Shown here piece by piece: positions 1-13,200 of a stretch of DNA of 13,200 bases (within the stretch, counting starts at the first letter, position 1; the number at the start of each line of letters is the position of its first letter). Made by a program: the position numbers and the translations under genes. Source of the stretch: a virus (Duplodnaviria > Heunggongvirae > Uroviricota > Caudoviricetes); IMG/VR virus record IMGVR_UViG_2657245439_000001; one strand, given 5' to 3'. The notes beneath the pieces were generated by a model. It saw only the letters and a program-made list of their open reading frames with translations. It was not told where the DNA came from and made no database searches.

Positions 1-1399
1 CCTTCAGGCGCTGTTCCGTGCCTTCCCGTTCTGCCTGCCGGTCAGTCAGCCCCCGGCTTTTCGCATCAATGGCGGCCCGTTTTGCCCGTTGCTGCTGTGC
101 GAATTTATCCGCCTGCTGCGCCAGCGCGTTCAGGTGCTCCTGATACGTAACCTTGTCGCCAAGTGCAGCCAGCTGGCGCTTGTACTCCAGCGTCTCGTCT
201 TTATGCGCCAGCAGGGATTTCTCCTGTGCAGACAGCTGGCGACGTTGCGCCGCCTCCTCCAGTACCGCGAACTGATTCTCCGCCTTCCACAAATCCCGGC
301 GCTGCTGGCTGATTTTCTCATTCGCTCCGGCATGCTTCTCCAGCGTCCGGAGTTCTGCCTGAAGCGTCAGAAGGGCAGCATGAGCACTGTCTTCCTGACG
401 ATCGCCCGCAGACACCTTCACGCCGGAGTGCTTCGGCTTTTTCAGCGTCGCTTCATAGTCCTTTTTCGCCGCCATCAGCGTGTTGTAATCTGCCTGCAGG
501 ATTTTCCCGTCCTTCAGTGCCTTGTTCAGTTCTTCCTGACGGGCGGTATATTTCTCCAGCGGCGTCTGCAGGCGTTCGTAAGCCTTCTGCGCCTCTTCGG
601 TATATTTCAGCCGTGATGCCTCAGAGTCGGCCCAGTCCTTTGCTGCCATCTCTCTGGCCTTTTCAAGATCGGCCTGCAACGTGGCGGCTGAAAGCCCAAG
701 TTGCGCATTCGCTCTGTCCTCCCATGCTCCACGGAGATTGGCAAGAAATGCTGAGGTTTTACCGCGCCGGTGGCTTCGGCTCTGATACCACTGCCATTTT
801 TTATCCGCTTCATCAAAAGCCTTTTCAGCTTTGGCGAGCATATCTGCAGAGGAGTCCGGGCGGCCAATATCCAGCACCGCATCCCACATGGATTTGAATG
901 CCTGTGCAGTCTTGTCAGCCCAGGTCTCCAGCGTACCCATGTTATCTTTCAGGCGGCGGGTCTGGTCATCAAACCCTTTCGTTGCGGCCTCGTTCGCCGC
1001 CTGCAACGCCCCGGCCCCATCGCCGGAACGCTGCAACTGAGCAACATACGCAATCTGTTCCGCCGTCACGTTATGGAACTGGCGCGCCATCGCCGTCAAC
1101 CCAGACGTCGGGTCAGTGGTCAGCTTCCCGAAGGCTTCAGCGACCTTGTCCACCTCCACGCCGGATGCAGAGGAGAAACGCGCCACACTCTGGCTGATTG
1201 CCTCAAACTGCTCACCACCACGCACACCGGCATTCACCAGCGCCGTCAGTGACTCGCTGGTCTGGTTAAACGTCAGCCCTGCCGCCTGCCCGGTTCTGGA
1301 CAGGGCCAGCATACGATCTGCCGTCAGTCCCGCCTGATTACCGGAAAGGACCAGCGTTTTGTTGAAATTAGACAGGGTTGAGTCACCCTGATACCAGGC
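1..1399 (-). pseudogene. H: Tail tape measure protein H, portion downstream of the in-frame TAG; frame stays open to the window edge
   Basis: I translated the minus strand codon by codon from 1399 to 2 in the H frame and found no stop codon. The product (e.g. ...KRQLAALGDKVTYQEHLNALAQQADKFAQQQRAKRAAIDAKSRGLTDRQAEREGTEQRLK) is clearly tape-measure-like and continues past position 1. It is separated from the H start only by the TAG at 1400-1402. First in-frame ATG after the stop is at 1312-1310. Confidence 0.8.
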
Positions 1400-1810
1400 C
1401 TACGTCAGCGCACCGGTCGCCACCGCTAGCGAAGTGATACCAACCATCGGCAGGGTGATCGCACCGGCAAGTCCCCTGAACATGGGGATCATCCCGCCAA
1501 AGGCGTCCTTCACCTGACCGCCCTGTTGCAGCAGGATCAGCCACGGACTTTGCCCGCCTGCAAGCTGCGTGGCCACGTCGGTGAACTGCGCAGGCAGCAT
1601 ACGCATGGCAGCTTTATACTGCCCGACGGAAATCCCCGCTTTCTGTGCAGCCAGCGCCTGTCGGTTCATCGACTGCTCAACAACTGCCGCTGTTTTTTTC
1701 GCATCACTTTCCGTACCGGAAAAATGACGCCTGACTCTGGCCATCTGCTCGTCAAATCTGGCCGCATCCAGACTCAAATCAACGACCAGATCGCCTACCG
1801 GTTCAGCCAT
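1400..1810 (-). CDS. H: Tail tape measure protein H, N-terminal 136-codon fragment ending at an in-frame amber TAG
   Basis: ATG at 1810-1808 overlaps the T stop (ATGGCTGA arrangement). The 136-aa product MAEPVGDLVVDLSLDAARFDEQMARVRRHF... matches the lambda gpH N-terminus. TAG at 1402-1400 falls where a sense codon is expected. Confidence 0.85.
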   Translation of the reverse strand: MAEPVGDLVVDLSLDAARFDEQMARVRRHFSGTESDAKKTAAVVEQSMNRQALAAQKAGISVGQYKAAMRMLPAQFTDVATQLAGGQSPWLILLQQGGQVKDAFGGMIPMFRGLAGAITLPMVGITSLAVATGALT

Positions 1811-2321
1811 ACCGGACTCCTCCTGCGATCCCTTCTGATACTGTCATCAGCATTACGTCATCCTCCGTCATGTCCGCCACATCCGGGGAAGCGGGGATAA
1901 CTTCATTCCCGTCAGGGCCAAAACGAACGCCTCCGGCAAGCCCTGCCGCTTTCTGCATCAGCACATCATCTTCAGGCTCTTCGTCAACCTCACGCCGGCT
2001 CAGCAGACTGAAATCCAGCGGATGCATATCCGGATCGCTGAAAAACAGGCTGAGCACGGTGTACGTCAGCCCGGAAAAGTGCATATCCAGCAGAACATCA
2101 TGAAAATAATGGGTACTGTAAAAGCGGTGCCAGTCGGCATACTCCGTGGATGACATCCCGGCAAGCATGGCGCGCCAGTCGGGTCGCCCCATCTCACGCG
2201 CCAGTTTCAGGGCAAAACTCAGACATTCCGGACAGACGTAACACCACGTTTTCAGCCTGAGCAATTGCCTCCGTGGGCCAGGTGGTAAGCACTTCCTGCT
2301 CAATCTGTTTAACGGCTTCAT
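1803..2321 (-). CDS. T: Tail assembly chaperone T-domain ORF (the T part of G-T); homology to gpT begins near 2237, upstream codons are an out-of-frame shadow of G
   Basis: The product ...ALKLAREMGRPDWRAMLAGMSSTEYADWHRFYSTHYFHDVLLDMHFSGLTYTVLSLFFSDPDMHPLDF...GIAGGVRYG matches lambda gpT. Its stop TGA at 1805-1803 overlaps the H start. The frame is +1 relative to G, not the -1 expected for lambdoid G-T. Confidence 0.75.
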   Translation of the reverse strand: MKPLNRLSRKCLPPGPRRQLLRLKTWCYVCPECLSFALKLAREMGRPDWRAMLAGMSSTEYADWHRFYSTHYFHDVLLDMHFSGLTYTVLSLFFSDPDMHPLDFSLLSRREVDEEPEDDVLMQKAAGLAGGVRFGPDGNEVIPASPDVADMTEDDVMLMTVSEGIAGGVRYG

Positions 2322-2544
2322 TCATGGACGGCATCTGCGTCTTCTTCGGATGGTTATGCCACAGGGACATCGCCACCACAAAAGCGCCGGTTCTGATGAC
2401 GTCTTCCACAGTAAACTTCCGGTTGCTGTCGGATTCTGCCTGCTGTTTCATCAGGGCGAGATGCTCAATACGCTGCAGGGCTGACAGTTCAGAAAGCGTG
2501 ACAGTCACGCCGTTATATTCAAATGATTCGGTTTTCAGGAACAT
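2194..2544 (-). CDS. G: Tail assembly chaperone G, C-terminally truncated (116 aa versus about 140 in lambda)
   Basis: ATG at 2544. The first ~110 aa (MFLKTESFEYNGVTVTLSELSALQRIEHLALMK...VLRLSGMSEF) match lambda gpG, followed by 6 unrelated residues (CPETGA) and TGA at 2196-2194. Confidence 0.85.
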   Translation of the reverse strand: MFLKTESFEYNGVTVTLSELSALQRIEHLALMKQQAESDSNRKFTVEDVIRTGAFVVAMSLWHNHPKKTQMPSMNEAVKQIEQEVLTTWPTEAIAQAENVVLRLSGMSEFCPETGA

Positions 2545-2559
2545 CGCTGACTCTCCGGA

Positions 2560-3300
2560 TTAGCTGTCGGTGACGTTGATTTCTGCAACCGCAGCAAACT
2601 CACCATTACCGGATACGACCGGAATGTTGACCTTGCCTGCAGCAACGCCCTTCACGGTGATGGTCATACCACTGACCGACACGGTGGCTTTTGTTTTATC
2701 CGCTGACACCGCACGGAAGCTCTTGTCGGTTGCGCCTTCCGGCTGGAATGCCACGGTCAGCGTGGTGCTCTGCCCTTTCACTACGGAAGCACTGGCTGGC
2801 GTTACCGTCATGCCGGTTGCCGCTGTCACCGTGCTGCGATCTTCTGCCATTGACGGACGGCCCACATTGGTGACCTTCACCGTACGGGTGATCACTTCCT
2901 TCGCCGTCACCGCCTTACCGATACTGCTGACCCAGCCACGGAACACATCGACCGTGCCGTTCGGGAAGCGGATTTTATAGGCACGGGTATCGCCTTCATT
3001 AAACCACGCCAGCAGCGCCTGCTGCCCCTGCTCTCCGGGCATCCACGCCAGCGTGAAGCTGGTATCTCCGGCGGATTTCTGCCCCTGCCCGGTCGCGGCC
3101 CAGTCCGGATCTTCATCATCGAGATAACTGTCGTCATAGGACTCTGCGGTCAGTTCGCCGGGCGTCAGTTCTTTAACTTTTGCCAGACGCGACCAGTCAA
3201 CGTCTGAAAGCGGGTTCGCATAAGGGTCACCGCTCCCCTTATAAACCCACAGAGTGGTTCCGGCACCTTTCACCGGTGCCAGAGGATTTGGTGTTGGCAT
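2560..3300 (-). CDS. V: Major tail tube protein V with C-terminal Ig-like domain
   Basis: ATG at 3300 preceded by a GAGGA RBS. The 246-aa product [36 protein letters not shown]... matches lambda gpV in length and sequence. The track ORF is extended upstream to 3330, but the internal ATG is the conserved start. Confidence 0.93.
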
Positions 3301-3307
3301 ATCGTCC

Positions 3308-3703
3308 TCACATTTCATAGGTAATGACATAAGTCAGATCGGCTGAACTCCACAGGCCCGCATCATCGTCGCGCCGGTAGTCATAGCCACTGGCCACCAT
3401 ACTGGCGATCAAATCTGACAGTGCCGGGATATCGTTCATCACCGGATAAATCCGGGACTCCATCCACGCATCCAGCTCTGAATCCGGTACCTGAGCAGGC
3501 AGGAAAACTTCAATATGCAGCTCCGCCTGCCAGGTATCGCTGTCCAGCTCTTCGCCCGTGTATTCAGCGCCGGTGAGATAAACGGCAACTGCCGGAAAAT
3601 CCGCCTCATCAAAAACAGCGGGGCGACCATCAAAAAGCGTCGCCCCGGTGTCATGCTTCTCCAGTGCATCCAGTACGGCTGCACGGAGTTCAGTATGTTT
3701 CAT
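3308..3703 (-). CDS. U: Tail terminator protein U
   Basis: 131-aa product [36 protein letters not shown]... matches lambda gpU. Its ATG overlaps the Z stop (ATGA). Confidence 0.93.
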
Positions 3704-4233
3704 CGCTTTATCGCAATCCTCAGTTGTTGTTTCAGGGCGTATTCCAGTTCTTTCGGCAAACGTTCACGCCGTATCTGTTCAATATTCTGTTTAAACGCCG
3801 TGGTCAGCGGCACCGCCATCGGGATTTTCACCACATCAATGGGGTAACGGTTTTTCCCGGCCACACGCTGCATGACATGCCAGCGACCATTTTTTAATCG
3901 CTGGATAAATGCCCGCTGATAACGATGCTGACCGGCCCGTAGCGTACTGTTGGGACGACTTCCGGTGATCCGTATCCCCAGTTTGATGACAGGTAAATCA
4001 CCGCGGTTAACAATGATTTTTACGTGCGGATTTTTGACCGTGGCCTTTTTCAGTCTGGCCCTTTCCTTTACCAGTTTTCGCCGCACCTTTGTCTCACGGG
4101 CAACCTGTGACGCCGACTGATTCATTGCCGTTGTGGCCACGCGGTTAATGGCCATTGCGGAGGCACCGGGCACTGCCGTTTTGCTGATACGGCTGAGGTT
4201 TTCAACGGCCTGCTCAAGACCTTTTATGGCCAT
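3700..4233 (-). CDS. Z: Tail completion protein Z, with a divergent and shorter central segment
   Basis: ATG at 4233 with a GGAGGAGG RBS. The N- and C-terminal regions match lambda gpZ (MAIKGLEQAVENLSRISKTAVPGA... and ...KNGRWHVMQRVAGKNRYPIDVVKIPMAVPLTTAFKQNIE...). The product is 177 aa versus 192 as recalled for lambda. Confidence 0.88.
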   Translation of the reverse strand: MAIKGLEQAVENLSRISKTAVPGASAMAINRVATTAMNQSASQVARETKVRRKLVKERARLKKATVKNPHVKIIVNRGDLPVIKLGIRITGSRPNSTLRAGQHRYQRAFIQRLKNGRWHVMQRVAGKNRYPIDVVKIPMAVPLTTAFKQNIEQIRRERLPKELEYALKQQLRIAIKR

Positions 4234-4244
4234 ACCTCCTCCTT

Positions 4245-4598
4245 TCAGCGACGACGGTTAACGGCAGGCGGCACGCCACGCCCAAGCCAGAGATGACAGC
4301 TTCCGCCATCATCCGGTGAAATCCGGTCTATCCAGAAGTTTTCCTCACCGATGGTCAGCGTGTCGCCGCGCCGCAGCTGCCGCACATCATCAGTCCGGAC
4401 AAACAGGGACGGGCAGGAGCCTTCAACACGTACGCCCTGTCCGGCATAGCTGATATTTTCAGGGTCATCAAAAACACCACGTATTACTGCGCCGGACTGC
4501 TCACCGGATGTCATGGTGGCTGACGTTCCCATGTACCCGCGTATCGTTTCATCGGCGCGGGCAATGGCAGCATCGAACAGGTTATCGAAATCAGCCAC
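4245..4598 (-). CDS. FII: Head-tail connector / head completion protein FII (GTG start)
   Basis: 117-aa product (M)ADFDNLFDAAIARADETIRGYMGTSATMTSGEQSGAVIRGVF... matches lambda gpFII. The start codon is GTG at 4598-4596, preceded by GGGAGGCG. Confidence 0.92.
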   Translation of the reverse strand: MADFDNLFDAAIARADETIRGYMGTSATMTSGEQSGAVIRGVFDDPENISYAGQGVRVEGSCPSLFVRTDDVRQLRRGDTLTIGEENFWIDRISPDDGGSCHLWLGRGVPPAVNRRR

Positions 4599-4609
4599 AG
4601 CGCCTCCCG

Positions 4610-5005
4610 TTATTGCATTCTGGCCAGGCCATGTTCTGTCATTTCGGCTGCCACACTGGCAGAAACACGGAACGCCGTTCCCGGCAGCACAAATGCCACA
4701 GCCTCATCCCGCGTGGCGTGAAGTGCATCAGTATGCAGCGTCACCAGTGCCACAACCGTGACCAGATCAGCCGTATCAGTCACGGTACCCGGCTGCGCTG
4801 ACACCACCTCATTTTCATGCCCGGTCAGCGCATTTTCCGGGCTGACAGACGTGTCCTGACCGGCAGCGTCATCCGTGTCATCAAGCTCCTCTTCCAGCTC
4901 TGCCACACGGAGCGCCAGTTCTTCTTTCGTCCCCGTCAGGCTGACATCACGGTTCAGTTGCTCACCCAGCACCTGAAGACGGGAAATCAGTTCATCTTTC
5001 GTCAT
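4610..5005 (-). CDS. FI: DNA packaging accessory protein FI
   Basis: ATG at 5005 preceded by GGAGGAG. The 131-aa product MTKDELISRLQVLGEQLNRDVSLTGTKEELALRVAELEEEL... matches lambda gpFI. The track ORF is extended to 5044; the internal ATG with an RBS is chosen. Confidence 0.9.
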   Translation of the reverse strand: MTKDELISRLQVLGEQLNRDVSLTGTKEELALRVAELEEELDDTDDAAGQDTSVSPENALTGHENEVVSAQPGTVTDTADLVTVVALVTLHTDALHATRDEAVAFVLPGTAFRVSASVAAEMTEHGLARMQ

Positions 5006-5026
5006 GGACTCCTCCACAGAGAGAAA

Positions 5027-5044
5027 ATGGCCCCGAAGGGCCAT
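5027..5044 (-). other. Stem-loop with UUCG tetraloop directly after the E stop and before the FI RBS
   Basis: Minus-strand RNA AUGGCCC-UUCG-GGGCCAU (7-bp perfect stem, UUCG loop) starts 2 nt after the E TAA and is followed by UUUCUCUCU and the GGAGGAG RBS of FI. Confidence 0.5.
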
Positions 5045-5046
5045 GA

Positions 5047-6072
5047 TTACGCCAGTTGTACGGACACGAACGCATCAGGGTCAGCCAGCAGCATCAGCGG
5101 TGCTGACTGAATCATGGTGAACTCACGCGCCGGATCGCCGGTGGTCACCCAGTTTTTCGGGTAGCGGGCAGAGGCGTTAATACCTTCGCGCTGTGCGTCC
5201 GCATCCTGAATGCAGCCATAGGTGCGCAGACCGCGTGCCTGAGTGTTCCCCAGCACCATCGTGTTGTCCGGAAGGAAGTTCTTTTTGACGTCGTTTTCCA
5301 CGTACTGTCCGGAATACACGACGATCGCCGTATCGCCATACATCCCCTTATAGGACACCGCTTCGCCCAGGTCTTTTACCGCTGTCTCCAGCTCGGAATT
5401 AGAGCCGCGACGGGTATCCAGCTTCTCCTTGACGGCTTTGAAGGAACGGAACAGCGCCCAGCCTTTTGGATCGAACACGATGATATTCACCACACCGCTG
5501 GCGTTCAGCGCGTAGGCTTCGATATCGTCGGTCGGGTCATACGTGGACTTGTCACGCTTGCTCCACTCCGTGCCGCCGGACTGCGTGATGTTATTCGCCG
5601 CACTGCGGCCCATATCCACCTCAACCGGATCGAAGGCTTCACCGGTCATGGTGTATTTGCCCTTGAGCACGGCAGAAACGGCCTGCATCTCTTCGACCTG
5701 GGCAATGGCAAGCTCCTCATCGCGCATGTTCTGCAGGATGATGCGACGGCGGCGGTAAGCAGGGTCTGCCAGATTCTGTGGATCTTCATCCGGCAGGCGA
5801 CGCAGGATCATCTGCGGATTCACCTCATGCTTGGGTTTGACATATCCCGGCGTAAATTCAGAGGTGGAGCCGCCACGGGAGCGGATAACCTCACCGGAAA
5901 CAATCGGCGAAACGTACAGCGCCATGTTTACCAGTCCCGGAATTTGTGAGAGATAGACTTTCTCCGTGGTGAAGAGATAGCTCTCACGGAAAAAAAGACG
6001 CAGAAACAGCGGATCAAACTTAAATTTCTGCTCATTTGCCGCCAGCAGCTGGCCGGTTGTGTACATCGACAT
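5047..6072 (-). CDS. E: Major capsid protein E
   Basis: 341-aa product MSMYTTGQLLAANEQKFKFDPLFLRLFFRESY...FVSVQLA matches lambda gpE at the same length. ATG at 6072; the track extension to 6099 is rejected. Confidence 0.95.
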   Translation of the reverse strand: MSMYTTGQLLAANEQKFKFDPLFLRLFFRESYLFTTEKVYLSQIPGLVNMALYVSPIVSGEVIRSRGGSTSEFTPGYVKPKHEVNPQMILRRLPDEDPQNLADPAYRRRRIILQNMRDEELAIAQVEEMQAVSAVLKGKYTMTGEAFDPVEVDMGRSAANNITQSGGTEWSKRDKSTYDPTDDIEAYALNASGVVNIIVFDPKGWALFRSFKAVKEKLDTRRGSNSELETAVKDLGEAVSYKGMYGDTAIVVYSGQYVENDVKKNFLPDNTMVLGNTQARGLRTYGCIQDADAQREGINASARYPKNWVTTGDPAREFTMIQSAPLMLLADPDAFVSVQLA

Positions 6073-6084
6073 AAAAAAATCCCG

Positions 6085-6112
6085 TAAAAAAAGCCGCACA
6101 GGCGGCCTTTAG
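6085..6112 (-). terminator. Intrinsic-terminator-like hairpin in the D-E intergenic region
   Basis: Minus-strand RNA reads AAAGGCCGC-CUGU-GCGGCUUUUUUU: a GC-rich stem of 5-6 bp with a 4-nt loop, followed by a run of seven U. It lies between the D stop (6128) and the E start (6072). Confidence 0.45.
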
Positions 6113-6127
6113 TGATGAAGGGTAAGG

Positions 6128-6460
6128 TTAAACGATGCTGATTGCCGTTCCGGCAAACGCGGTCCGTTTTTTCGTCTCGTCGGTGGCAGCCTCCGGCCAG
6201 AGCACATCCTCATAACGGAACGTGCCTGACTTGTAGAACGTCAGCGTGGTGCTGGTCTGGTCAGCAGCAACCGCTAGGATGCCAACGGCAGCACCGTCGG
6301 TGGTGCCATCCCACGCAACCAGCTTACGGGTGGAGGTATCCGGCATCAGCGGGGTCATTGCAGGCGCTTTCGCACTCAATCCGCCGGGCGCGGTTGCGGT
6401 ATGAGCCGGGTCACTGTTGCCCAGCGGCTGGTAATGGGTAAAGGTTTCTTTGCTCGTCAT
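6128..6460 (-). CDS. D: Capsid decoration protein D
   Basis: 110-aa product [39 protein letters not shown]...[10 protein letters not shown] matches lambda gpD. ATG at 6460; the track ORF starts two codons upstream. Confidence 0.95.
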
Positions 6461-6469
6461 AAACATCCC

Positions 6470-7075
6470 TTACACTGGTGTGTTCAGCAAATCGTTAACG
6501 GCATCAGATGCCGGGTTACCTGCAGCCAGCGGTGCCGGTGCACCCTGCATCAGACGATCCAGCGCAGTGTCACTGCGCGCCTGTGCACTCTGTGGTGCAG
6601 CTGCCAGAATGCGGCGGGCCGTTTCCACGGTCATACCGGGGGTTCCGGCCAGCACACGTGCCTGTTCTTCGCGTCCGTGAGCCTCCTCACAGTTGAGGAT
6701 CCCCATAATGCGACTGTTTTCTGCCGCAACCGCTGCGGTGATCTGCGCGTTCACGTCCGGCTGCGCCGCGCTGGCGTTCTCGCCCTCCGTCGCTGACACC
6801 ACGTCAGTAACGTCAGCCTGCAAAGCAGTGGCTGAAACAGTTGTTGATTGAGTCTCTTTGGTCATTCGCCCTCCTGAGAGACGGGATTTACGTGCATCCA
6901 GTGCATCACGCATGACGGTGATCGTATCGGTGCTGTTAACAAGTTCATCAGCCAGTCCGGCATCAATGGCCTCCTGACCGCTGTACACTGCAGCCTCGGT
7001 ATCCAGAACAGCCTGCACGGACAGGCCGGTATATGCCGACACTTTCTGCGCAAACATCTGGCGGGTTGCATCCAT
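6470..7075 (-). CDS. Nu3: Scaffolding protein Nu3, nested in-frame in the 3' third of C
   Basis: Internal in-frame Met (MDATRQMFAQKVSAYTGLSVQ...) gives a 201-codon C-terminal ORF, matching the known C/Nu3 nested arrangement of lambda. Confidence 0.75.
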   Translation of the reverse strand: MDATRQMFAQKVSAYTGLSVQAVLDTEAAVYSGQEAIDAGLADELVNSTDTITVMRDALDARKSRLSGGRMTKETQSTTVSATALQADVTDVVSATEGENASAAQPDVNAQITAAVAAENSRIMGILNCEEAHGREEQARVLAGTPGMTVETARRILAAAPQSAQARSDTALDRLMQGAPAPLAAGNPASDAVNDLLNTPV

Positions 7076-7769
7076 CCGGGACTGCAGTGTTTCCCGGACG
7101 TCATCCGGAAGATGGCTGTAGGGGTTGCCATCCACCTTATGGCTGCCGCTGTAAATCAGCGTGATTTCCACGCCCTGTTTCTCCAGCGCAGCACCGTAAT
7201 TGCTGTGAGCCATCATGACGCCGATGGAGCCTGTCCGGGCGGTCTGCGTGACCAGACGCCGGGAAGCGGCACTGGCAAGCAACTGACCTGCACTGCAGTT
7301 CATGTCGTTGGCAAGCGCCCATACCGGTTTTATGTCACGCACACGGGCGATGATGTCAGCGCAGTCAAATGCCCCCGCCACCATCCCGCCGGGCGTGTCC
7401 ATATCGAGCAGAATGCCGTCCACCATCGGATCGCTGGCAGCCTGTTGCAGACGGGCGATAATGCCGTTGTAACCGGTCATCCCCGAATACGGCTGCAGCG
7501 CCCGCGTCCGGCTGACCAGCGTGCCGGAAACCGGCAGCACGGCGATGCCGTTCATGACCTGATAACTGCGGGCCTGTCGTGGTCCGTCATCATCACCGGA
7601 TAACGCCAGCGTCGCGGGTGCCTCTCCGGCAGTCAGGCTGTCACCGGACACCGCATCTGTCAGGCGGCTGATCCCAAGCTGGCCTGCAAGCGCACAAAAG
7701 AAAACCCGCGCATAGGCGGGTTCAAGCATCAGCGGCTCATTAAAGGCCATGCTGGCAATATGCGGGAGA

Positions 7770-7789
<20 letters not shown>
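6470..7789 (-). CDS. C: Prohead protease / head maturation protein C (GTG start, overlaps the 3' end of B by 20 nt)
   Basis: 1320 nt, 439 codons: (M)TAELRNLPHIASMAFNEPLMLEPAYARVFF...ASDAVNDLLNTPV. The GTG at 7789-7787 gives the same length and N-terminus as lambda gpC. The track's upstream ATG at 7924 would overlap B by more than 150 nt. Confidence 0.9.
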
Positions 7790-11470
<3,681 letters not shown>

Positions 11471-11496
<26 letters not shown>

Positions 11497-12016
11497 TCAG
11501 CAACCCCGGTATCAGTTCATCCAGCGCGGCTGCTTTGTTCATGGCTTTGATGATATCCCGTTTCAGGAAATCAACATGTCGGTTTTCCAGTTCCGGAAAA
11601 CGCCGCTGCACCGACAGGGGGATCCCGTCGAGAATACTGGCAATTTCACCTGCGATCCGCGACAGCACGAAAGTACAGAATGCGGTTTCCACCACTTCAG
11701 CGGAGTCTCTGGCATTTTTCAGCTCCTGTGCGTCGGCCTGCGCACGCGTAAGTCGATGGCGTTCGTACTCAATAGTCCCTGGCTGGAGATCTGTCTCGCT
11801 GGCCTGCCGCAGTTCTTCAACCTCCCGGCGCAGCTTTTCGTTCTCAATTTCAGCATCCCTTTCGGCATACCATTTTATGACGGCGGCAGAGTCATAAAGC
11901 ACCTCATTACCCTTGCCACCGCCTCGCAGAACGGGCATTCCCTGTTCCTGCCAGTTCTGAATGGTACGGATACTCGCACCGAAAATGTCAGCCAGCTGCT
12001 TTTTGTTGACTTCCAT
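11471..12016 (-). CDS. Nu1: Terminase small subunit Nu1
   Basis: 181-aa product MEVNKKQLADIFGASIRTIQNWQEQGMPVLRGGGKGNEVLYDSAAVIKWYAERDAEIENEKLRREVEELRQA... matches lambda gpNu1. ATG at 12016, immediately downstream of cosB. Confidence 0.95.
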
Positions 12017-12193: not shown

Positions 12194-12205
12194 AGGTCGC
12201 CGCCC
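12194..12205 (-). other. cosN: cosN cohesive-end sequence (minus-strand GGGCGGCGACCT, the 12-nt 5' overhang of the lambda left end)
   Basis: Plus strand 12194-12205 is aggtcgccgccc, the reverse complement of GGGCGGCGACCT. It is followed on the minus strand by CGCGGGTTTTCGCTATTTATGAAAATTTTCCGG, as at the lambda left end, and lies about 190 nt upstream of the Nu1 ATG. Confidence 0.85.
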
Positions 12206-12505
12206 CGTAGCCTGCCGGATCGCCGGAAAGGACCCGCAAGCGTTCTGGTTTATTCGCAATGAATTCAATGTCTGACAGACCAGCGTCGTGCGACCACGGT
12301 CGCACGCTCCTGAATACATGCCCTGTTTCTTCCACCCTCGCACAAGACTGGCGAGCATGAGGGACAAACCCGCGAATCATTAGCTCGGTAAAAACCCGGT
12401 GTGCATCGTTTTGATTATTCCCGCACACTCGCGCAGAAGGAATTCCCCGTCGGGCTACGGTCATGGTTAATGCGGGAATACGGCGACGATACAGCGCATA
12501 ATGTG

Positions 12506-13054
12506 TCAGGCTTGAATACCTTTATCGAATCCCGGTAATAAAAACTGTCCCTGTCTCTCCAGACGTTCCAGCTTTGCAAGCAATTGAGGTTTTTTCGTTC
12601 TCCCCCAGCGATTGAGCAGACGGCCTGACATGCTGGCGACATCCTTCTCTTTCATGTACTCCAGCATTACGGCGTTACGTTCTGCTTCATAACTTTCGCT
12701 GTACTTACGGAGTTCTGCTGACATCCAGTTAAACGCATTGATATAGGCTTCTTTAACAGCATCGGCTTTTGCCCCGTTAAATCCCATAACCAGCATAACG
12801 AAGCCACTAAAGTCCATGCGGTAGTAAATCTGTTTCTTGTCAAAAATCCCTAAGTCATTGATTTTCTCGACGGCCCAAAAATGGGTTGTCGAGAATTCCT
12901 CAGAACATCTCAAACATTTAATAGCCCTAATCACATGCTGATGGCGTTTACCAAATGCCCTGGCAATCTGGAAGGTGTCAGTTACCGGTTGACCTTCTGC
13001 TGCGGTAACTAACTGGCGAAAGTCGAAGTCATGATTCGCAATTAATTCATTCAT
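12506..13054 (-). CDS. Rha-family phage regulatory protein (putative; alternative GTG start at 13123)
   Basis: ORF in late-operon orientation. The N-terminal region MNELIANHDFDFRQLVTAAEGQPVTDTFQIARAFGKRHQHVIRAIKCL resembles the Rha-family (Phage_pRha) N-terminal pattern, including the FGKRH-x-x-V-(I/L)-R motif. No database search was possible. The ATG at 13054 is chosen over the upstream GTG. Confidence 0.55.
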   Translation of the reverse strand: MNELIANHDFDFRQLVTAAEGQPVTDTFQIARAFGKRHQHVIRAIKCLRCSEEFSTTHFWAVEKINDLGIFDKKQIYYRMDFSGFVMLVMGFNGAKADAVKEAYINAFNWMSAELRKYSESYEAERNAVMLEYMKEKDVASMSGRLLNRWGRTKKPQLLAKLERLERQGQFLLPGFDKGIQA

Positions 13055-13200
13055 GGCGTTGCCTGCTTCTTTGAAATGAACCTTTGCCGCACAGGAAACC
13101 AGCCCACCGAGGCTCGCCAGCACTAACTGGTATCCTCAAAGGCCCATTCCAAAGGGTCAGGTTCGGTGTTTATTGTGCGCTGCGGTGCGCGGTGAAATAC

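Follow-up and report, generated by a model that had tools for sequence, protein, structure and literature searches.

How should a contig be read in which the head and packaging genes of a lambda-type phage look complete and the tail genes are broken: as a prophage in decay, as an element that fills its own heads and borrows its tails, or as a conditional phage? The question is raised by a 13,200-bp stretch of DNA (the window, i.e. the whole stretch analysed), which is the entire draft contig JHTH01000118.1 of the E. coli assembly GCA_001266385.1. Our analysis indicates that the window is very probably part of a defective lambda-type E. coli prophage whose tail genes have been going one step at a time through ordinary mutation. 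Its virion genes carry inactivating lesions, as expected of a defective or cryptic prophage, with the essentiality of these genes taken from the lambda literature.

Map of the late operon

The window contains a lambda-type late operon with all genes on the minus strand. Comparisons with annotated relatives (tblastn and the relatives' own annotations) and Pfam calls on the contig gave the collinear order cos-Nu1-A-W-B-C/Nu3-D-E-FI-FII-Z-U-V-G-T-H. Gene integrity was assessed by tblastn, for which E. coli Z1323PEC0014, as the closest complete relative, supplied the query proteins; from Nu1 to V, the matches were end-to-end and free of stop codons. The features from the upstream side to V are as follows.

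12509..13123, minus strand: Rha-family regulator gene between the lysis cassette and cos (context, outside the lesions)
12194..12205, minus strand: cosN, GGGCGGCGACCT, intact, exact match
4248..12016, minus strand: head and packaging module, Nu1 to FII, 88.6-100% identity to the Z1323PEC0014 proteins (gene calls, Pfam)
11474-12016, minus strand: Nu1, full-length tblastn match
9574-11496, minus strand: A, full-length tblastn match
9371-9574, minus strand: W, full-length tblastn match
7773-9371, minus strand: B, full-length tblastn match
6473-7789, minus strand: C/Nu3, full-length tblastn match
6131-6460, minus strand: D, full-length tblastn match
5050-6072, minus strand: E, full-length tblastn match
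4613-5005, minus strand: FI, full-length tblastn match
4248-4598, minus strand: FII, full-length tblastn match
2563..4233, minus strand: proximal tail genes Z, U and V, intact, 98.5-100% identity (tblastn)
3703-4233, minus strand: Z, 177 aa, full-length match
3311-3703, minus strand: U, 131 aa, full-length match
2563-3300, minus strand: V, 246 aa, full-length match

The 12-nt cohesive-end site cosN is present upstream of Nu1; genome records of related phages start at window positions 12198-12206, and we take the surrounding sequence to resemble the left end of lambda. The full-length, stop-free matches and the exact cosN bear out the original prediction that the head and packaging module, cos included, is intact. 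No tRNA gene or known RNA element was found within the 13.2-kb window.

The same gene order is found in phage 2B8 (NC_049952, Alegriavirus) and in the prophage of Z1323PEC0014 (NZ_CP148268), both 98.3-98.7% identical to the window in nucleotide sequence from cos through H. Both relatives share with the window a Z protein of 177 aa, as against 192 aa in most relatives (presumably the length of Z in lambda itself); since 2B8 is a viable phage, the short form is not a lesion. Both also have a G of 140 aa, the slip site GGGAAAG, T and an uninterrupted H of 859 aa, where the window has an 88-nt deletion in G/T and a TAG at H codon 137.

Two separate lesions in the tail module

The original prediction placed one lesion in G/T and a second, separate one in H; the former was confirmed as an 88-nt deletion and the latter as an amber codon. 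The affected part of the window has the following features.

2194..2544, minus strand: G', truncated tail assembly chaperone (110 native residues, six out-of-frame residues CPETGA, then TGA)
2215..2222, minus strand: deletion junction, with the single remaining copy of the 8-nt direct repeat CTGAGTTT
1803..2192, minus strand: remaining T coding sequence, a free 129-aa ORF (PF06223, Phage_tail_T)
1403..1810, minus strand: N-terminal 136 codons of H (PF06791), with the H start at 1810
1400..1402, minus strand: in-frame amber TAG replacing Tyr137 (TAT to TAG) in H
1..1399, minus strand: H codons 138-604, open; the gene runs off the contig end

Save for the single TAG at codon 137, the H frame continues uninterrupted through 604 codons, where the contig ends; an uninterrupted tape measure ORF (about 850-860 codons) is not found in the window. 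Codon 137 is TAT in the 124 related sequences compared. At least 120 IMG/VR contigs have TAT or TAC at this codon in a matching 26-mer context, and none of them has TAG there. The H TAG was found neither in 5,426 complete E. coli genomes nor, as an exact 26-mer, in scans of GTDB and IMG/VR. An identical 136-aa H fragment is present on five contigs (at least four other assemblies), three of which are longer than 1 Mb (5-Mb contigs). A 3-nt difference from 2B8 at position 467 is in frame and is no lesion.

Comparison with 2B8 and with the sister prophage L126 described below shows what the deletion has taken away: the final 27 codons of G, the slip site GGGAAAG and the beginning of T. L126 has two copies of CTGAGTTT 88 nt apart, and the missing segment is exactly one copy plus the 80 nt between the two; the loss being bounded by 8-nt direct repeats points to slipped mispairing as its origin. 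The resulting G' protein has 116 aa. The T ORF starts with an ATG located 1 nt past the G' stop codon (TGAGATG) and, as 88 equals 1 modulo 3, lies in the +1 frame relative to G', so that an in-frame G-T fusion is not encoded. No GGGAAAG was found in the G/T region of the window; with the slip site gone and T in the +1 frame, the programmed −1 frameshift yielding gpGT is lost. A further 9-nt difference from 2B8 at position 2434 is in frame and allelic rather than a lesion, since the sisters' G has the same 137 aa.

In lambda both gpG and gpGT are needed, at a ratio of about 30:1; gpGT binds gpH through its G part and gpV through its T part (PMC3296357; PMC5009743). Lacking full-length gpH and gpGT, the prophage probably could not assemble tails of its own.

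Sister prophages and the order of the lesions

Sister prophages with 99.4-99.95% nucleotide identity to the window were identified: L126 (GCA_900449185.1, UGBR01000009.1), L125 (GCA_900450055.1, UGEV01000002.1), L145 (GCA_900449225.1, UGBW01000003.1) and L128 (GCA_053258235.1). The closest of them, L126 (99.9% identical), differs from the window by seven substitutions in 11.7 kb, the 88-nt deletion and an insertion of 1 nt in its own gene A. Its G (137 aa), GGGAAAG and T (144 aa) are all intact, and L125 likewise has all three undamaged.

L125, L126 and L128 all carry TAG at H codon 137 together with the same neighbouring ACG codon, and every sister inspected has the same ...CTGACGTAGGCC... 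context around the TAG. L145 ends before H; it probably has the amber codon too, being identical to L125 over 9.2 kb. Beyond the TAG, the sisters' H is open to codon 858, and M, L, K, I and J follow. J is split in L125 and L126 by an IS4-type transposase gene with a 13-bp target duplication. In L145 the order is ybhC-int-IS3-ninE...Q-lysis-Rha-cos; cI, cro, O and P are absent between int and cos, with an IS3-family element in their place. Without immunity and replication genes a sister of this type would be unable to induce or replicate alone. Given the close identity of the sisters (99.4-99.95%), we infer that the IS4 insertion in J and the early-region deletion may also be present in the strain from which the window comes.

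The lesions are nested across the relatives in a way that indicates accumulation by vertical descent. The amber codon is shared by five contigs, and the deletion is private: a 34-mer spanning its junction is absent from E. coli genomes, GTDB genomes, IMG/VR and JGI metagenomes, the deletion was not found in the 5,426 complete E. coli genomes, and the exact 116-aa G' product is known from JHTH01000118.1 only. Of the two lesions, for which the original prediction proposed a check of related genomes, the amber codon is found in sister prophages and the G/T deletion is not. Since L126 combines the amber codon with intact G/T and the junction occurs nowhere else, the deletion is the later event.

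An assembly or sequencing artefact is another way to explain the deletion, and possibly the TAG as well: the window comes from a short-read draft, as a contig of 13.2 kb, in which several near-identical prophages may have been confused, and the deletion is seen in this single draft assembly. We consider this improbable. Other strains, assembled independently and in part as 5-Mb contigs, have the same TAG, so it is real and inherited. As for the deletion, an 8-nt bounding repeat is typical of replication slippage and far below any assembler k-mer, and the flanks match the sister base for base.

Stepwise decay proceeded as follows. An ancestor acquired the TAT to TAG change at H codon 137, an allele now seen in several strains. 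IS4 entered the tail-tip gene J, as seen in sisters and presumed for this strain; in one type of sister, an IS3-family element has replaced the immunity and replication region beside int, on the ybhC side. In this strain alone, slipped mispairing between the 8-nt repeats dropped the 88 nt, and with them the gpG C-terminus, the site of −1 slippage and the residues with which the T extension begins, leaving gpG truncated and gpGT unmakeable. Of the three explanations originally offered, only prophage decay gains support, from the shared amber codon, IS4 in the sisters' J, the loss of the immunity and replication region in one sister type and the private deletion; 'early' is probably too generous for this lineage.

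That both lesions fall in the tail third of the contig carries no significance of its own, since two random hits would do so with a probability of roughly 0.12 (about 0.35 squared). The 120 related IMG/VR loci include 82 complete H genes; as many as 13 of these have no end-to-end match, and about 8-10 of the 13 look split or frameshifted. G, T, E and B are occasionally affected too. Related prophages commonly have lesions of this kind, at similar rates in head and tail genes. There is no sign of special preservation of the head genes and cos, which look intact because they have not yet been struck.

Helper tails and readthrough as unlikely alternatives

The intact head genes and cosN also fit a parasite whose heads are completed, by adaptation or incidentally, by the tails or by the gpH, gpG and gpGT of a co-resident lambdoid prophage. 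E. coli genomes with this tail module usually have it at least twice (median two places, maximum nine), and both contig ends lie in lambdoid-conserved sequence, which hints at related co-residents in this strain. Precedents exist as well: co-resident prophages help in packaging and transferring the defective lambdoid prophages of O157 Sakai (PMC2669165), and the cf-PICIs show that a capsid-only, tail-stealing lifestyle exists (10.1101/2025.02.11.637232). Nevertheless, we regard such parasitism as very unlikely. The lesions are rare or unique and do not recur; Z, U, V, T and almost all of H are retained rather than shed; one sister has no immunity and replication genes; and lesion rates in relatives show no asymmetry between head and tail. 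The proposed capsid-only lifestyle consequently found no support, and the expectation that DNA-filled heads should still form is undercut by the sister without replication and immunity genes. As an adaptation, helper-tail parasitism is even harder to accept; occasional incidental rescue is more plausible, and its biology is already known.

A related scenario concerns the spread of the H-amber lineage. The amber allele exists in two sub-variants set apart by a 60-SNP patch in A-B and has thus outlasted some diversification, more than is required if the amber codon is seen purely as a 'recent accident'. The lineage could conceivably have spread despite dead tail genes with the help of a lambdoid co-resident with matching Q: the helper Q would activate the late operon, the element's own terminase, portal and capsid would package DNA from its own cos, and helper tails would complete the heads, yielding a lambda-derived functional analogue of cf-PICIs reached through gene loss. 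In that case the two sub-variants, with their recombined A-B patch, would be a sign that the lineage still circulates and is not just passed on vertically. We hold this scenario to be very doubtful.

A leaky or conditional phage is scarcely credible. It would still form some tails by readthrough of the TAG, either basal or through an amber suppressor of the host or a prophage, and would reach T by re-initiation at the T ATG or by slipping +1 where the deletion has created GAG-UUU-UGC. With a suppressor that inserts tyrosine at amber codons, H codon 137 would again yield the wild-type residue, the U-run at the junction could let tRNA-Phe re-pair in the +1 frame (the frame of T), and the T ATG abuts the G' stop. 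However, any G'-T product would lack 27 G residues and the first T residues, unprogrammed frameshifting occurs at less than about 5e-5 per codon (PMC3296357), and the arrangement is conserved nowhere. Dependence on a suppressor host is excluded as a full explanation, because neither the frameshifting 88-nt deletion nor IS4 in the sisters' J, which would still block tail-tip function, can be suppressed, and the window has no tRNA gene.

The window is thus best described as an ordinary defective lambda-like prophage; nothing shows a new head-only parasite. It matters little beyond correct annotation, apart from offering a clean, datable example of lambdoid decay, from an inherited nonsense codon in the largest tail gene through IS insertions to a microhomology-mediated deletion of a programmed-frameshift site. 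When an 'intact head, broken tail' pattern is seen in one contig, sister genomes should be checked for recurrence before a helper-dependent lifestyle is proposed. Were the helper-tail reading true, capsid-only parasitism could arise directly from a complete temperate phage.

Comparison with known systems

The sus (amber) mutants of lambda in H and the G/T mutants known from the genetics of its tail assembly are affected in the same genes and by the same type of lesion as the window. The tape measure is lost when H has a nonsense codon, and gpGT when the slip site is missing (PMC5009743; PMC3296357). These mutants were made in the laboratory and are grown on suppressor hosts, whereas the window has a natural allele together with non-suppressible lesions.

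Both trans-complementation of defective lambdoid prophages and tail-stealing satellites have already been described. The O157 Sakai pool (Asadulghani et al. 2009, PMC2669165) is like the present element in consisting of lambdoid prophages whose morphogenesis genes have been hit by point mutations, IS elements and deletions; there, the defects are complementable by co-resident prophages with near-identical virion genes. The present element, in contrast, is known from its sequence alone.

The cf-PICIs are dedicated satellites that have no tail genes and recur across species. They make their own DNA-filled capsids and take tails from phages (He et al. 2025 preprint, 10.1101/2025.02.11.637232), and so match the helper-tail idea in concept, with self-made capsids and foreign tails. 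A cf-PICI-like satellite was rejected for the window, in which Z, U, V, most of G, T and at least 603 H codons are present, the deletion junction being found nowhere else and the amber codon on only five contigs. In contrast to cf-PICIs, the present element is an entire prophage of the lambda type, whose tail genes are almost complete and whose lesions are rare and recent.

Relatives of the window

An exact-protein look-up identified the window as all of JHTH01000118.1, a contig of 13,200 bp in the draft E. coli assembly GCA_001266385.1; it has a late operon of lambda type on the minus strand. Its closest complete relatives are a viable Escherichia phage, 2B8 (98.6-98.7% identity), and a prophage of E. 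coli Z1323PEC0014 (98.3-98.5% identity). In the annotations of these two, the genes run in the order Rha, cos, Nu1, A, W, B, C, D, E, FI, FII, Z, U, V, G, T, H. At position 1 the contig stops inside H, at codon 604; at position 13200 it stops 77 nt upstream of Rha, on the downstream side of the lysis genes. Both ends fall within sequence highly conserved among lambdoid prophages, which suggests that the source genome holds further related prophages and that these broke the assembly.

Head module and cos

Searches by tblastn with proteins of a relative produced end-to-end matches, free of stops, for Nu1, A, W, B, C, D, E, FI, FII, Z, U and V. The cohesive end site is intact as well:

12194-12205, minus strand: cosN, GGGCGGCGACCT, intact

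We take the sequence flanking cosN to resemble the left end of lambda. These matches, together with the intact cosN, bear out the original prediction that the head and packaging genes and cos are full length. The Z gene (window 3703-4233) encodes 177 aa versus 192 aa in most relatives and, presumably, in lambda. The 177-aa allele is also present in several prophages and in 2B8; since 2B8 is viable, the short Z represents natural variation and is neither a truncation nor a lesion.

Amber codon in the tape measure gene

The H gene starts at 1810, and its reading frame is open for 604 codons up to the contig end except for a single TAG at 1400-1402. The alignment places this TAG at codon 137, where TAT is found in 124 of 124 related sequences; the predicted disruption of H is thus confirmed. 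The adjoining codon is ACG (GCG in most relatives, with ACG in one of the 124).

The 26-mer with TAG had 0 exact matches in IMG/VR and none among GTDB representative genomes; in the positive control of the exact-pattern scan, TAY in the same 26-mer context was detected in at least 120 IMG/VR contigs. The amber allele was absent from the 5,426 complete E. coli genomes of the ecoli_genomes collection. The exact 136-aa N-terminal fragment of H is encoded on five contigs: that of the window, those of three sister prophages, UGEV01000002.1 (L125), UGBR01000009.1 (L126) and JBNDDE010000049.1 (L128), and one more contig longer than 1 Mb, very probably UGBW01000003.1. The locus on UGBW01000003.1, L145, is the same as L125 across 9.2 kb save one single-base gap. 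The ACG-TAG context was identical in every sister inspected. Since independent assemblies contain the same amber, it is inherited and real, and an assembly error is ruled out for the TAG.

An amber codon could also mark a laboratory lambda derivative. We rejected this origin, given that most records of lambda-like phages are just ~95-97% identical to the window (2B8: 98.6-98.7%) and that the allele is present in several natural and collection strains.

Deletion in G/T

In the G/T region, encoding the tail assembly chaperone, the window is 88 nt shorter than both 2B8 and L126. L126 has two copies of CTGAGTTT, one at 9501-9508 and the other at 9589-9596, offset by exactly 88 nt. Comparison with L126 identified the junction:

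2215-2222, minus strand: surviving single copy of CTGAGTTT, the deletion junction

This arrangement, with a single copy left in the window, is a classical mark of deletion by slipped mispairing at short direct repeats. Of the two lesions, the deletion alone could be an assembly artefact, which the 8-nt repeat renders improbable.

Lost with the 88 nt were the slip site GGGAAAG, the 27 codons at the end of G and the opening codons of the T extension; no GGGAAAG is left in the G/T region of the window. The truncated product, G', has 116 aa (110 native residues followed by CPETGA), and gene calling gives the T frame as a free ORF of 129 aa, with its ATG one base past the G' stop (TGAGATG). A constitutive in-frame G-T fusion was considered and rejected: it needs a deletion of 2 mod 3, but 88 is 1 mod 3, which puts T in the +1 frame. 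With the slip site gone and T out of frame, the claim that G-T is disrupted stands. At the junction (window 2190-2222, minus strand) the message has GAG-UUU-UGC, and the frame of T is +1. A G'-T fusion or free T might in theory arise by rare +1 slippage or by re-initiation. The junction 34-mer had no exact match in ecoli_genomes, GTDB genomes, IMG/VR or JGI metagenomes, and the 116-aa product is, as far as known, encoded on the contig of the window only.

Differences of 9 nt and 3 nt from 2B8 were rejected as lesions, both being in frame; the 9-nt difference is allelic, the 137-aa G being common to the sisters of the window. The G allele (window 2215-2560) is a mosaic outlier of this 137-aa type, whose middle part is shorter by 3 codons. 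Its protein is 81% identical to that of the otherwise closest relative; the neighbours T and V are >99% identical.

Relative age of the lesions

Over 11.7 kb, the window and L126 are separated by only 7 substitutions, the 88-nt deletion in the window and a 1-nt insertion in gene A of L126. L126 retains the slip site, with a 137-aa G and a 144-aa T. Since L126 has the amber with intact G/T, and G' and the junction were found nowhere else in the collections scanned, the deletion is later than the amber and private to the window.

Amber prophages of the L125/L145 type carry 60 clustered substitutions relative to the window and L126, all in A-B (window 8637-11389), and are nearly identical elsewhere. 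The cluster is a recombination patch, so the amber allele has outlasted one or more exchanges with other lambdoid phages. The private substitutions of the window (7, of which 4 are synonymous) and the codon changes in H of a sister versus an intact relative (11 synonymous and 7 non-synonymous) are too few to inform on relaxed selection.

Further decay in sister prophages

In L125 and L126, an IS4-type transposase interrupts gene J, leaving pieces of 846 aa and 271 aa; the insertion is flanked by a 13-bp target duplication, CAGCAAACTGGAG, at the same site in both sisters.

L125 17475-18926 and L126 17476-18927, opposite orientations in the two: IS4 in J, 100% identical 1.4-kb element

The opposite orientations may stem from independent insertions at an IS4 hot spot, from inversion in place or from an assembly artefact.

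Protein look-ups with B, Rha and a 49-aa ORF, aimed at the stretch upstream of Nu1 in UGBR01000009.1 and at further contigs of the assembly of the window, led to other genomes. L145, reached by the look-up with Rha, shows the other end of an L125-type prophage, with a ybhC homologue (presumably the neighbourhood of lambda attB), a lambda-type integrase, an IS3-family transposase, ninE, Q, lysis genes, Rha and cos.

L145 1324-7000: integrase, IS3-family transposase and ninE, directly adjoining

L145 has no repressor, cro, O or P gene; its immunity, recombination and replication region is entirely gone. Because it has none of these four genes, this sister would, by its gene content, be unable to be induced or to replicate alone. 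Given 99.4-99.95% identity, it is reasonable to infer that the strain of the window also has the IS4 insertion in J and the early-region loss; such regions lie outside the 13.2-kb contig.

Single-base indels split A (~717) and I (14390) in L126 and FI (~18350) in L145. They are absent from near-identical sisters and from the window, and may be long-read homopolymer errors or more private decay.

Lesions in related loci

The 120 related loci from IMG/VR include 82 complete H genes, of which up to 13 had no end-to-end match; about 8-10 of the 13 look split or frameshifted (e.g. L012, L078, L082, L100, L004). Occasional lesions were seen in G, T, E and B too. H is the largest target of the operon, and the chance that two random lesions both land in the tail third of the window is roughly 0.12, not significant. 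Lesion rates of head and tail genes in the relatives showed no asymmetry. One locus, L075, has lesions in H, G, T and V; the T common to L038 and L067 matches from residue 64 onward only.

Consequences for tail assembly

Lambda requires gpG as well as gpGT, in a ratio near 30:1; gpH, the tape measure, is bound by the G part, and gpV, the tail tube protein, is brought in by the T part (PMC5009743, PMC3296357). With gpH cut at residue 136 and gpGT not made, the prophage would be unable to build its own tails. The amber in H was inherited first, and the private G/T deletion came later, by slipped mispairing at CTGAGTTT. We conclude that the window is part of a cryptic lambdoid prophage in stepwise decay, an ordinary and already-known kind of object. 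The original prediction offered a prophage in early decay as one of three explanations; the inherited amber, the later deletion and the sister lesions support decay, but 'early' is probably too generous.

Incidental rescue of such a decaying prophage by lambdoid prophages residing in the same cell is plausible. Genomes with this tail module have a median of two copies. A head-only lifestyle, with heads completed by the tails of a helper, is unsupported. The lesions of the window are rare or unique: a check for recurrence in related genomes found the junction in no collection scanned and the amber on five contigs only. Moreover, the other tail genes were not shed, the relatives lack a head-versus-tail asymmetry, and one sister has lost replication and immunity genes. 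Dependence on a suppressor cannot explain the deletion, which shifts the frame, and no suppressor tRNA or recoding RNA element was found within the window. Rescue of defective lambdoid prophages by co-residents is known biology (PMC2669165), and true tail-stealing satellites, the cf-PICIs, have already been described.
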